DNA of 64,000 bases from Escherichia phage LF82-1. Positions 5,246 through 6,249 of this stretch are shown piece after piece (position 1 is the stretch's first letter; each line of letters begins with the position of its first letter). Location of the stretch: the sequence record PV648359. One strand, given 5' to 3'. The notes below the pieces were generated by a model. The model ran no database searches, was not told where the DNA came from, and saw only the letters and a program-made list of their open reading frames with translations. The position numbers were made by a program, and so were the translations under genes.

Positions 5246-5290
5246 ATTATTTCCTCATTAGTTAATTCATTCTATCATCCGTTTATAAAG

Positions 5291-5316
5291 CAAAAAAGGA
5301 ACTCCGAAGAGTTCCT
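5291..5316 (-). terminator. rho-independent terminator (AGGAACTC-TTCG-GAGTTCCT followed by U-run) upstream of gene 47
   Basis: 8-bp GC-containing stem with UUCG-type loop and T6 tract on the minus strand. Confidence 0.6.
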
Positions 5317-5488
5317 ATCCACATAGTACACCGTACAGAGGCTCATTTGAACTTTTAAATCGAATGGGCTTGTACGTAATAGTTCCTTCGGCTTTAGCTT
5401 TATCATAAGACTCTTTAAAACGTCTCATTCTTTCTGCTTTGCCTTTACGGATTTTATCGAAATTTTCAGAAGTCGGGATGTTCGTCAT
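5315..5488 (-). CDS. hypothetical 57-aa protein (below ORF-track size cutoff)
   Basis: ATG preceded by GAGAGGTG RBS; translation MTNIPTSENFDKIRKGKAERMRRF...; stop overlaps the terminator stem. Confidence 0.4.
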   Translation of the reverse strand: MTNIPTSENFDKIRKGKAERMRRFKESYDKAKAEGTITYKPIRFKSSNEPLYGVLCG

Positions 5489-5527
5489 GCATAAGCACCT
5501 CTCAGAAAATGCCTAAATCGATTTCTC

Positions 5528-5734
5528 TCATCGTTTCCACCATTTCTTAACTTGAAATGAATCAACCCACACGAGTTGTTTTGGGTCTGCCTTTACAATA
5601 GGCGGACAAATTTCTGTAATAGAACCGTCGTGATATTCCTTTTCGGAAATTTTAACACAAAGAGGACCTCCCAATTTAAGGGAGAACCCTGCGTTCAGCT
5701 TCAGACGTTTAAACTTTGTTTGAACTAGCGCCAT
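5528..5734 (-). CDS. hypothetical small protein
   Basis: Track ORF 5528..5749 trimmed to first ATG with GAGGA RBS; 26-nt overlap with upstream ORF makes it uncertain. Confidence 0.35.
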   Translation of the reverse strand: MALVQTKFKRLKLNAGFSLKLGGPLCVKISEKEYHDGSITEICPPIVKADPKQLVWVDSFQVKKWWKR

Positions 5735-6032
5735 TAATGATGTCCTCAATAGCCTGACGAGTAGTAATCCACTGGATTTTAATTAACTTGTCATTGTATG
5801 GTTGTCGTAGAATATCCCGAGATTTCTTAATAGCATATTCGTAAGCTTCGAAGTTGTTTTGAATTGCTGCTTCTTGAGCATGTGCATAAAGACGGTTTAG
5901 TTCAAAACGATTCTTTTTAAGAATCTTTTCGGATTTTTTACGTGCTTCAGCTTCATTTTTCTTTTGGATTTCTTGTAGCATTTTAGCTACTGCATCTTCT
6001 GCTTCTTTATTTTCAATAATCTCGGTAGTCAT
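5709..6032 (-). CDS. hypothetical Lys/Glu-rich protein
   Basis: 107-aa ORF, coding-like composition. Confidence 0.55.
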   Translation of the reverse strand: MTTEIIENKEAEDAVAKMLQEIQKKNEAEARKKSEKILKKNRFELNRLYAHAQEAAIQNNFEAYEYAIKKSRDILRQPYNDKLIKIQWITTRQAIEDIINGASSNKV

Positions 6033-6033
6033 A

Positions 6034-6249
6034 TTATCTCATTAAATTAAAATAAAAACGTCCATCCTCTTCAATACAGAACTCGTACTCAACTGGAGTC
6101 CCATTTATTGAAAATGACACGTCATGTGGGTTCAAAGGGTCGATGTCAAAATTAATTTTAAATTCACGACCCAACAGTTTTACCAAATAAGGGATTGCTT
6201 CGTCAAAAGGTTCTTCTAAGTAGTTAGAGATGTCAATTGTCATCCTCAT
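6034..6249 (-). CDS. hypothetical small protein immediately downstream of gene 55
   Basis: Track ORF 6034..6327 trimmed to in-frame ATG overlapping the gp55 stop; no clear RBS. Confidence 0.4.

Follow-up and report, generated by a model that had tools for sequence, protein, structure and literature searches.

We analysed the region between genes 47 and 55 in a 64,000-nucleotide window from Escherichia phage LF82-1 (PV648359). The window matches exactly bases 106000-169999 of the 169,999-bp record PV648360.1 (Escherichia phage LF82-2), which we used for whole-genome searches. The interval between the two genes spans 987 bp (5246-6232), and all genes around it are located on the minus strand. 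Its left border is the start of gene 47 at 5245 (4226-5245, minus strand), which encodes a 339-aa SbcD-like recombination nuclease subunit (phrog_100 match) sharing 76% identity with T4 gp47 and 99.7% with RB69 gp47. On the right, the interval is limited by the stop of gene 55 at 6233 (6233-6790, minus strand), the gene for the late sigma factor (phrog_234 match), whose product is 91% identical to T4 gp55 and 99.5% identical to RB69 gp55. Downstream of gene 55, homologues of T4 a-gt.5, a-gt.4, a-gt.3 and a-gt.2 follow directly, then a single cassette consisting of a terminator hairpin joined to a MotA-type middle promoter, then gene 47, with nothing else in between. The a-gt.2 stop and the gene 47 start are separated by just 69 bp (5246-5314) holding terminator, promoter and ribosome binding site, and this slot is devoid of a-gt. 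The late promoter TATAAATA does not occur between 5246 and 6900.

The four small open reading frames are all on the minus strand. The a-gt.2 homologue (5315-5488, 57 aa) belongs to DUF5486 (Pfam PF17588, 4.5e-28) and is 76% identical to its T4 and 95% identical to its RB69 counterpart. The a-gt.3 homologue (5528-5734, phrog_1648 match) has 68 aa, or 73 aa if an upstream TTG is used, and shares 69% identity with T4 and 98.5% with RB69. The a-gt.4 homologue (5709-6032, 107 aa, DUF2654, Pfam PF10849, 1.6e-27) is predicted to be all-helical, with 58% identity to T4 a-gt.4 and 99% to the RB69 protein. The a-gt.5 homologue (6034-6249, 71 aa, DUF5491, Pfam PF17595, 5.8e-13) shares 17 nt with the 3' end of gene 55, its longest reading being a 97-aa frame that likewise overlaps gene 55; it is 47% identical to T4 a-gt.5 and 100% identical to RB69 a-gt.5 over 69 aa. 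PHROGs, Pfam and NCBIfam assign the four proteins only to families of unknown function, and a full-text literature search for the names a-gt.2 to a-gt.5 returned one paper, in which a-gt.4 is a conserved ORF of unknown function. Homologues of a-gt.4 adjoin gene 55 in all Straboviridae lineages that we sampled, and a-gt.4 and a-gt.5 together accompany gene 55 across these lineages. The names a-gt.2 to a-gt.5 are thus misleading, as the genes persist whatever sugar system a phage uses.

The cassette between a-gt.2 and gene 47 begins with an intrinsic-terminator-like hairpin identified by a terminator scan (5291-5316, minus strand). The hairpin proper, AGGAACTC-UUCG-GAGUUCCU, starts within the a-gt.2 stop codon and forms an 8-bp stem with a UUCG loop (5316-5297), followed by a run of six T residues. 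It is retained in the centroid fold, and several related records carry a terminator annotation for it. A predicted MotA-type middle promoter of gene 47 follows (5269-5292, minus strand), an exact match to TGCTTTA-N11-13-TANNNT with the Mot box TGCTTTA at 5292-5286, an 11-nt spacer and the -10 element TAGAAT at 5274-5269. This pattern occurs seven times in the window, with 1.0 match expected. The Mot box is kept at the homologous position in RB69, JS98, T4, RB14 and PKO111, and a MotA homologue is annotated in the phage genome. The segment 5269-5292 is predicted to act as a middle promoter for gene 47. The arrangement resembles the PeSL/PmSL cassettes described in T4-like phages (Arbiol 2010; Comeau 2014, PMC4122927), in which promoter, Shine-Dalgarno sequence and start codon come directly after a stem-loop; the Mot-box version (PmSL) has been described for phage nt-1 (PMC4122927). 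All PmSL/PeSL elements are present in 5243-5317: a stem-loop, then Mot box and -10 element, Shine-Dalgarno sequence and start codon. Like those cassettes, the present one is located at an indel site among related genomes. Genome-wide, LF82-2 has three strict stem-loop/promoter composites of this type, compared with about 0.1 in Markov controls. With only three strict copies of the hairpin and Mot box in 170 kb, the cassette does not represent an abundant repeat family.

We compared this layout to that of T4 (NC_000866), where the order is 47, 47.1, a-gt (400 aa), mobB, a-gt.2, a-gt.3, a-gt.4, a-gt.5 and 55. The sequence-only reading had correctly placed a-gt between 47 and 55 in T4, and had rightly described the interval as shorter than 1 kb, with only four small ORFs (57-107 aa) and a terminator, and as containing no a-gt gene. 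T4 has the same flanking genes, the same four small ORFs (47-76% identity) and the same kind of hairpin and Mot-box cassette after a-gt.2. It differs by 2.3 kb containing 47.1, a-gt and mobB, which are missing from the window. In Tequatroviruses, the slot between 47 and a-gt.2 is filled by 47.1, a-gt and, in T4 itself, mobB, whereas it is empty in Mosigvirus. Searches by tblastn with T4, RB14 and PKO111 a-gt identified no homologue, whether in the interval, elsewhere in the window or across the complete genome of 169,999 bp (best E = 0.04 over 69 aa), and an a-gt profile HMM found none among all 1511 stop-to-stop ORFs (best E = 1.3). A weak a-gt match at 36635-36814 falls within an unrelated 200-aa ORF (36299-36901); as this ORF has no Pfam match and a profile E of 1.3, we treat the match as chance. 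A vestigial or hidden a-gt was likewise rejected, neither tblastn nor the HMM detecting one in interval, window or genome. No 47.1 homologue is present in the whole genome. Ten larger ORFs in the window, nine annotated as hypothetical and one as a nucleotidyltransferase, have no glycosyltransferase domain by Pfam, and match DUF7235, DUF7275/7277, an RlaP-like nucleotidyltransferase family and, weakly, AAA/HTH families.

By its sequence, the phage is an RB69-like member of the genus Mosigvirus. Over 10 kb of collinear sequence, the part of the genome that was compared, its DNA shares 95.3% identity with RB69, and it is 99.4% identical to Mosigvirus p000v over a 2.65-kb query. RB69 (NC_004928) has the same order 47, a-gt.2, a-gt.3, a-gt.4, a-gt.5, 55, with equal ORF lengths except for a-gt.5, which is annotated 6 nt shorter in RB69. 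The intergenic cassette is identical bar one base and the small-ORF and border proteins are 95-100% identical, amounting to strain-level differences only. The Dhakavirus JS98 also lacks a-gt and contains a-gt.2 to a-gt.5. Downstream of a-gt.2, its Mot box and -10 element lie in a nearly identical segment (TTTTTTGCTTTATA..CGGATGATA.AATGAA), but JS98 retains 47.1 between the promoter and gene 47, which the window does not. Dhakaviruses have been listed among the lineages with a 5-hydroxycytosine cluster (PMC13326640).

We next consider the DNA modification genes. In RB69, arabinose is present, and a-gt, b-gt and ba-gt are missing (PMC6024577). The DNA of this phage has 5-hydroxycytosine bearing one or two arabinose units (PMC13326640), and 5-ara-dC and 5-ara-ara-dC are found in the DNA of Mosigvirus NP (PMC13390438); published LC-MS and NMR data show for both phages that arabinosyl-5-hydroxy-dC takes the place of dC in virion DNA. 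The LF82-2 genome contains the complete RB69 cytosine-arabinosylation set, with full-length orthologues of RB69 gp3, gp45, gp46:47, gp48, gp49, gp50, gp51, gp52:53, gp55 and gp56 at 92-99.5% amino-acid identity. Except for gene 1, the modification genes are located 4-31 kb before the window start, and hence outside the window. Most are clustered in the segment from uvsX to gene 43, at 4-11 kb from the window start; the gp56 gene is found 18 kb before it, and the gp3 gene adjoins rIIA. The gp48 orthologue (record positions 96751-97467) is a 5-hydroxy-dCMP synthase with a thymidylate-synthase fold (Pfam Thymidylat_synt). It is 99.2% identical to RB69 gp48, for which synthesis of 5-hydroxy-dCMP has been demonstrated by experiment (PMC13326640), and only 25% identical to T4 gp42; its PDB matches are 9iqc/9ir2 (E = 2e-161). 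The gp56 (dCTPase) orthologue shares 97% identity with the RB69 enzyme. Orthologues for the supply of NDP-arabinose, namely gp55 (99.5%), gp51 (98.4%) and gp52:53 (99%), as a set provide an arabinose-5-P isomerase, a phosphatase and a kinase-nucleotidyltransferase fusion, with Pfam matches to SIS isomerase, NTP_transferase and kinase-like families. Gene 1 (42990-43724, minus strand), encoding a dNMP kinase 96% identical to RB69 gp159, is the one gene of the cytosine-modification pathway that falls within the window. RB69 gp159 phosphorylates 5-hydroxy-dCMP (Lee et al., PMC13326640).

The sequence-only reading had allowed for a glycosyltransferase encoded elsewhere, and indeed two such genes are found in the genome, outside the window. 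Neither Pfam nor NCBIfam provides a sequence family for these two arabinosyltransferases; the gp3 orthologue is linked to its function by a near-identical PDB entry and the gp46:47 orthologue by the literature. The gp3 orthologue is a 366-aa ORF with 99.2% identity to RB69 gp3 and about 98% identity to the 'glycosyltransferase subfamily 4-like' protein in PDB 9iqz/9ir0. The gp46:47 orthologue, a 299-aa ORF 98-99% identical to RB69 gp46 plus gp47, is according to the literature the putative first DNA arabinosyltransferase. It has no match in Pfam, NCBIfam or PDB sequences, and the assignment of a glycosyltransferase fold comes from the structure predicted in the literature for the RB69 protein. 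The RB69 genes 46/47 and 52/53, which are split in the reference, each correspond to one unbroken ORF in LF82-2 (299 and 561 aa), in agreement with the published view that the splits are sequencing errors (PMC13326640).

We conclude, with a probability of roughly 90%, that this is an RB69-like Mosigvirus phage without a-gt, which has a 5-hydroxycytosine arabinosylation system in place of glucosyl-hydroxymethylcytosine (hmC). Our analysis establishes which genes are present, their orthology, and that the three T-even glucosyltransferases are missing; the enzyme activities and the chemistry of RB69 and NP DNA are taken from the literature. The gp48 orthologue, a thymidylate-synthase homologue, would convert dCMP to 5-hydroxy-dCMP, which the dNMP kinase (gene 1) and host enzymes would convert to the triphosphate, with the dCTPase gp56 presumably removing dCTP. 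Two GT-B-type glycosyltransferases, the orthologues of RB69 gp46:47 and gp3, would then add one or two arabinose units from an NDP-arabinose donor, likely made by the phage-encoded isomerase, phosphatase and kinase-nucleotidyltransferase. As judged from orthologues at 92-99.5% identity, LF82-2 DNA probably carries arabinosyl-5-hydroxycytosine of the RB69/NP type. T4 shares the logic of this pathway, in that a thymidylate-synthase homologue generates a modified dCMP, dCTPase and dNMP kinase support it, and GT-B enzymes add the sugar. T4 uses 5-hydroxymethylcytosine and glucose, in contrast to 5-hydroxycytosine and arabinose in the RB69 type (PMC13326640), and it uses b-gt, whereas LF82-2 has neither b-gt nor ba-gt. 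The LF82-2 glycosyltransferases have no detectable sequence similarity to T4 a-gt or b-gt. No a-gt would be needed, because the phage probably does not make glucosyl-hmC. The proposal that glucosylation would differ if the phage used hmC thus holds insofar as the sugar pattern differs from that of T4, but its premise of hmC and glucose was wrong: this is a different, already described modification system and not a variant glucosylation pattern.

We considered other explanations for the missing gene. The phage might still make hmC and glucosylate it by b-gt and/or ba-gt only, as in the a-gt-less Karamvirus and Gelderlandvirus. A gene-42 homologue is present in the genome, S16 and UFV01 also lack a-gt between 47 and 55, and according to Thomas et al., phages of this kind have homologues of b-gt and ba-gt. 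However, tblastn with T4 b-gt and RB14 ba-gt gave no match with E below 0.8 in the whole genome (E of at least 0.85), and the slot normally holding these genes, from uvsX to gene 42, is taken by the orthologues of RB69 gp45 and gp46:47. The gene-42 homologue itself is the 99%-identical counterpart of the RB69 5-hydroxy-dCMP synthase. This explanation is already contradicted by gene content, and we regard it as very improbable. A new, very small sugar transferase encoded by one of the four ORFs and standing in for a-gt has scarcely any probability, and we found nothing in its favour. The ORFs have 57-107 aa, compared with roughly 230-400 aa for known GT-A and GT-B enzymes, and T4 has the same four genes on top of a-gt. 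All four match DUF families only. A single-sequence AlphaFold model of a-gt.4 (pLDDT 76) has four helices without Rossmann-type beta-alpha-beta units, and Foldseek with this model returned no PDB match below E = 2.9; the corresponding model of a-gt.3 (pLDDT 48) is too poor for use. PDB sequence searches with a-gt.3, a-gt.4 and a-gt.5 gave no match below E = 0.7. The sequence-only reading had left room for a glucosyltransferase among the small ORFs; all four proved to be homologues of a-gt.2 to a-gt.5, which in T4 lie beside a-gt. An artefact, or a recent deletion private to this isolate or assembly, is just as hard to credit, and no evidence pointing to it was found. The 2651-bp stretch from 47 to 55 is at least 80% covered in one unbroken piece in 146 independent phage records, 136 of them at an identity of at least 95%, and the arrangement is therefore not peculiar to one isolate. 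The curated RB69 reference has the same layout without a-gt, and the junction forms a clean terminator-promoter-RBS-ATG unit. The absence of a-gt in this phage is thus real but ordinary, and already known.

How Mosigvirus came to lack a-gt may be explained by either loss or an ancestrally empty slot. The Tevenvirinae ancestor may have had a-gt between a-gt.2 and 47, with Mosigvirus losing it on adopting arabinosyl-5-hydroxycytosine, a scenario to which we assign about even odds. In its favour, both Tequatrovirus and Jiaodavirus have a-gt at this position, and T4 and PKO111 a-gt are 67% identical, compared with 70% for gp47, 78% for gp55 and 68% for a gp46+47+55 concatenate, as vertical descent predicts. 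A neighbour-joining tree of gp46+47+55, based on three genes and ten taxa with only 66% support at deeper nodes, places the two a-gt-bearing genera on opposite sides of the Tevenvirinae split, with Mosigvirus sister to Tequatrovirus (100% bootstrap). In T4, RB14 and PKO111, a-gt is bracketed by two cassettes of UUCG hairpin and (T/A)GCTTTA, one on each side, whereas the window and other a-gt-less genomes have one copy; recombination between the flanking copies may have caused the loss. However, at least three independent losses would be required (Mosigvirus, Dhakavirus, and Karamvirus with Gelderlandvirus), and recombination is common in these phages. If instead the empty slot is ancestral, which we consider a real prospect though short of probable, a-gt would have been inserted into Tequatrovirus and Jiaodavirus as a cassette complete with stem-loop and promoter, either through two acquisitions or through a single ancient transfer from one genus to the other. 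Eight of the ten sampled lineages lack a-gt in the slot; the more distant Krischvirus, Lazarusvirus and Roth22 have only a-gt.4 and a-gt.5 between 55 and 47, and in cyanophage S-RIM14 genes 55 and 47 abut. Cassette-mediated insertion has also been proposed for T4-like phages (PMC4122927), but the identical insertion point in both genera calls for an explanation. As a-gt has diverged between the two genera to the same extent as the core genes, any transfer would be about as old as the genera.

Under either history, the 47/a-gt.2 junction could be a recombination-active promoter-middle stem-loop cassette, through which the a-gt module was excised from or inserted into Tevenvirinae genomes, although we regard this as rather unlikely. 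The window cassette has the look of a hybrid between the two copies in T4, with a hairpin and GCTTTATAAA segment resembling the copy on the a-gt.2 side and a CGGA..GAT segment resembling that on the 47.1 side. Another cassette of very similar sequence lies ahead of gene 39, whose immediate downstream neighbour is the gene for the second arabinosyltransferase. Support for the copies flanking a-gt as possible mediators of recombination is circumstantial. If they do act in this way, DNA-modification genes would be exchanged together with their own terminator and promoter, as independent units.

Returning to the arabinosylation system, RB69-type phages without a-gt and b-gt have been in the literature since 2018, and the chemistry of arabinosylated 5-hydroxycytosine since 2025-2026. 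The main use of our finding is therefore correct annotation, and it has little use beyond, with the bracketing of the a-gt slot by terminator-promoter cassettes as a minor by-product. For LF82-2-type phages, for example those directed against adherent-invasive E. coli LF82, the DNA is expected to be RB69-like and not T4-like. Such DNA would be a target for certain type IV systems, for example BrxU from the GmrSD family; sensitivity to BrxU/GmrSD-type systems has been reported for Mosigvirus NP. The phage DNA would at the same time resist most restriction enzymes and many CRISPR nucleases.

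All genes in the 47-55 part of the window lie on the minus strand. Gene 47, coding for an SbcD-like nuclease subunit (4226-5245), is separated from the late sigma factor gene 55 (6233-6790) by 987 bp that comprise four small ORFs and a single intergenic spacer. The ORFs are homologues of T4 a-gt.2 (5315-5488, 57 aa, 76% amino acid identity), a-gt.3 (5528-5734, 68 aa, 69%), a-gt.4 (5709-6032, 107 aa, 58%) and a-gt.5 (6034-6249, 71 aa, 47%), with matches to the Pfam families DUF5486, DUF2654 (a-gt.4) and DUF5491 (a-gt.5). The 69-bp spacer (5246-5314) has a UUCG-loop hairpin, its stem 8 bp long, and then six T. 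Directly after the hairpin comes an exact MotA-box middle-promoter pattern (TGCTTTA-11 nt-TAGAAT; 7 matches in the window versus 1.0 expected), and 3' of it are a ribosome-binding site, GAGGA, and the ATG of gene 47. The sequence-only reading, which placed four small ORFs and a terminator at 5246-6232, thus described the interval accurately. Mechanical ORF calling puts the gene 55 start at 6808, a TTG (ORF 6233-6808, 191 aa); the ATG at 6790 gives 185 aa, the length of the late sigma factor in T4 and RB69. Read at its longest, from 6327, a-gt.5 has 97 aa and extends 95 nt into gene 55; annotated versions (69-71 aa) overlap that gene by 11-17 nt only.

That reading placed an a-gt of about 400 aa between 47 and 55 in T4, rightly so, as the T4 reference genome is annotated 47, 47.1, a-gt (400 aa), mobB, a-gt.2, a-gt.3, a-gt.4, a-gt.5, 55. 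Compared with the window, T4 carries an extra 2.3-kb block of 47.1, a-gt and the homing endonuclease gene mobB. The latter is a separate T4 insertion, because RB14, another Tequatrovirus, has a-gt without mobB. In the window, nrdG and nrdD overlap directly (10216-12500) and nrdD is one unbroken 605-aa ORF, whereas T4 nrdD contains a group I intron with I-TevII and is set apart from nrdG by the homing endonuclease gene mobC. None of the three mobile endonuclease genes of the T4 47-to-nrdD stretch (mobB, mobC, I-TevII) is found in the window.

The entire window corresponds to bases 106000-169999 of Escherichia phage LF82-2 (PV648360.1, to which record positions refer below), and its 47-to-55 stretch is 100% identical to that phage and sibling isolates. 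DNA identity is 99.4% to phage p000v, classified as a Mosigvirus; RB69, compared across 10 collinear kb, is at 95.3%. The curated RB69 genome has the same order (47, a-gt.2, a-gt.3, a-gt.4, a-gt.5, 55) and the same ORF lengths, except for an annotated a-gt.5 that is 6 nt shorter, and its proteins are 95-100% identical to their window counterparts. Because the RB69 annotation is identical in layout and 146 records in the phage collection cover the 47-to-55 stretch without interruption, the absence of a-gt is a genus-wide trait and no accident of one isolate.

We compared the 55-47 interval in nine lineages besides that of the window. In cyanophage S-RIM14, 55 abuts 47 with nothing between them. 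Krischvirus, Lazarusvirus and Klebsiella phage Roth22 have only two small genes there, a-gt.5 and a-gt.4 homologues with 28-42% identity to the window proteins. The full set a-gt.2 to a-gt.5 is found without a-gt in Karamvirus, Gelderlandvirus (S16, with gp36.1), Dhakavirus (JS98, with 47.1) and Mosigvirus (RB69 and the window), and together with a-gt in Jiaodavirus (PKO111) and Tequatrovirus (T4 and RB14, with 47.1, and mobB too in T4). Homologues of a-gt occur in 657 phage records, mostly from Tequatrovirus and Klebsiella/Jiaodavirus-type phages; since the gene is mostly limited to these two groups, the state without it is the commoner one.

We put at roughly 0.5 the probability that a-gt is ancestral and has been lost repeatedly, the Mosigvirus branch being one such case. 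Between T4 and PKO111, a-gt is 67% identical, close to gp47 (70%), gp55 (78%) and the gp46+47+55 concatenate of core gene products (68%). A neighbour-joining tree of this concatenate puts the two genera with a-gt on either side of the Tevenvirinae split and joins Mosigvirus to Tequatrovirus as its sister group (100% bootstrap). Both results fit repeated loss. An ancient lateral transfer of a-gt fits the same identity and tree data almost as well and is only a little less probable.

The junction itself may bear on how a-gt came or went. In T4, RB14 and PKO111, like elements lie on both sides of a-gt: a GC-rich UUCG-loop hairpin, then directly (T/A)GCTTTA and a -10 box. Where a genome without a-gt has a comparable junction (window, RB69, JS98), one copy stands at the corresponding place, that of JS98 being nearly identical to the window's, where hairpin, T-run, Mot box and -10 box upstream of gene 47 span 5243-5317. 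This cassette agrees with the 'promoter-middle stem-loop' (PmSL) variant of the PeSL cassettes, proposed to mediate modular gene shuffling in T4-like phages (Comeau et al., PMC4122927). Only three strict hairpin plus Mot-box composites occur in the LF82-2 genome versus about 0.1 in randomised controls. One of them, a close look-alike of the composite before gene 47, stands upstream of gene 39 and reads AAGGGCTTCGGCCCTTTTTGCTTTAGATTTCGGATGATAGAAT (record 77534-77584; about 17535-17585 in locus L003); the gene for the predicted second arabinosyltransferase, the RB69 gp3 orthologue, comes after gene 39. The arrangement would be consistent with recombination between copies of the cassette having excised or inserted a-gt, a reading to which we assign a modest probability; it proves neither event and indicates no direction.

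The four small ORFs do not replace a-gt, all being homologues of T4 a-gt.2 to a-gt.5. Family libraries and PDB sequence searches gave no lead to their function, and the sole usable model, of a-gt.4, has four helices and no significant fold match. They are kept whether a phage modifies its DNA with glucose, with arabinose or otherwise. Among the sampled Straboviridae (Krischvirus, Lazarusvirus, Roth22 and all six Tevenvirinae genera), a-gt.2 and a-gt.3 are limited to Tevenvirinae, and a-gt.4 (DUF2654) and a-gt.5 (DUF5491) lie directly downstream of gene 55 in every lineage (window 5709-6249; 2887-3409, 2901-3417 and 2924-3458 in loci L014, L015 and L016). In Nolan et al. 2006, a-gt.4 already appears as a conserved ORF without an assigned function. 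The a-gt.4/a-gt.5 pair has the look of a conserved partner of the late sigma factor gene, unlinked to glycosylation. Because the ORFs persist across sugar systems and this pair is constantly beside gene 55, 'a-gt' in their names denotes T4 map position only.

We assembled the complete genome (169,999 bp) from pieces and queried it with a-gt of T4, RB14 and Klebsiella phage PKO111, T4 b-gt, RB14 ba-gt and 47.1. None reached E < 0.04, and an a-gt profile against all 1511 stop-to-stop ORFs gave a best E of 1.3, bearing out that a-gt is missing. The sole sub-0.1 tblastn match to T4 a-gt, a 200-aa ORF at 36299-36901 (E = 0.04, 27.5% over 69 aa), was taken as a chance match, with a profile E of 1.3 and no Pfam match. 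Pfam found no glycosyltransferase domain in ten larger window ORFs, nine annotated as hypothetical and one as a nucleotidyltransferase. At 15353-21533 there is a row of functionally unassigned genes of about 320 aa (15353-16303; 16366-17325, DUF7235; 17381-18376; 19451-20431, with weak AAA/STAND-NTPase and HTH matches), followed by an RlaP-like nucleotidyltransferase (20547-21533).

Every RB69 cytosine-arabinosylation gene has a full-length LF82-2 orthologue (gp numbers from here on are RB69 protein numbers). The main cluster (record 95302-101851) lies between uvsX and DNA polymerase, 4-11 kb ahead of the window's first base, in the place taken in T4 by segA, b-gt, 42, imm and imm.1. Identities to RB69 are 98.9% for gp45 (kinase-like), 98-99% for gp46:47 (record 95852-96751; L003 35853-36752), 99.2% for gp48, 92% for gp49, 99.5% for gp50, 98.4% for gp51, about 99% for gp52:53 (record 99349-101034; L003 39350-41035), 99.5% for gp55 (arabinose-5-phosphate isomerase), 97% for gp56 (dCTPase) and 99.2% for gp3 (record 74559-75659, adjoining rIIA). 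The sole component within the window is gene 1, a dNMP kinase (42990-43724; 96% to gp159). Pfam recognises thymidylate-synthase, NTP-transferase/kinase and SIS-isomerase domains in these proteins. The gp3 orthologue differs at 6 of 366 positions from structure 9iqz/9ir0, deposited as a glycosyltransferase subfamily 4-like protein, and the gp48 orthologue matches 9iqc/9ir2 (E = 2e-161). The RB69 reference has split pairs, ORF046c/047c and ORF052c/053c, where LF82-2 has one unbroken ORF each (299 and 561 aa), which supports the published view that the splits are sequencing errors. Outside the window, a 330-aa DAHP-synthase-family protein (record and locus L004 36121-37113; PF00793 at 5e-75) is encoded next to dCMP deaminase. 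This family includes KDO-8-P synthases, which use arabinose-5-P, and a tie to the phage's own sugar-phosphate metabolism would be conceivable. The protein has tblastn matches in 212 phage records; among these are 139 at 95% identity or above and also Straboviridae with Enterobacter, Serratia, Klebsiella, Morganella and Proteus as hosts. It is not mentioned by Lee et al. 2026 (PMC13326640).

RB69 was reported to lack a-gt, b-gt and ba-gt homologues and to have arabinose in its DNA, with ORF003c (gp3) proposed as a GT-B arabinosyltransferase (Thomas et al. 2018, PMC6024577). Lee et al. 2026 found its base to be 5-hydroxycytosine, not 5-hydroxymethylcytosine: gp48, a flavin-associated thymidylate-synthase homologue, uses O2 to turn dCMP into 5-hydroxy-dCMP, which gp159 then phosphorylates, and virion DNA contains mono- and di-arabinosylated 5-hydroxycytosine. 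They predict gp46:47 and gp3 as first and second arabinosyltransferase, and NDP-arabinose supply from gp55, gp51 and gp52:53 (PMC13326640). Independently, Mosigvirus NP was found to contain 5-ara-dC and 5-ara-ara-dC at 1:4 (PMC13390438). Because the orthologues are intact and 92-99.5% identical, LF82-2 DNA very probably shares this chemistry.

The observation is hence confirmed and its earlier interpretation partly right. The sugar pattern must differ from T4, with a-gt, b-gt and ba-gt absent and the arabinosylation gene set present, and transferases encoded outside the window, the gp46:47 and gp3 orthologues, could compensate; their similarity to the T-even enzymes is undetectable at the sequence level. 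The hydroxymethylcytosine/glucose premise does not hold for a lineage with 5-hydroxycytosine and arabinose instead. The proposed gene 42 check returned a homologue only 25% identical to T4 gp42, whose near-identical orthologue in RB69 acts as a hydroxylase rather than a hydroxymethylase. LF82-2 is not a hydroxymethylcytosine/glucose phage with a reduced enzyme set; the genus's type phage already has a published explanation, which carries over to this near-identical genome.
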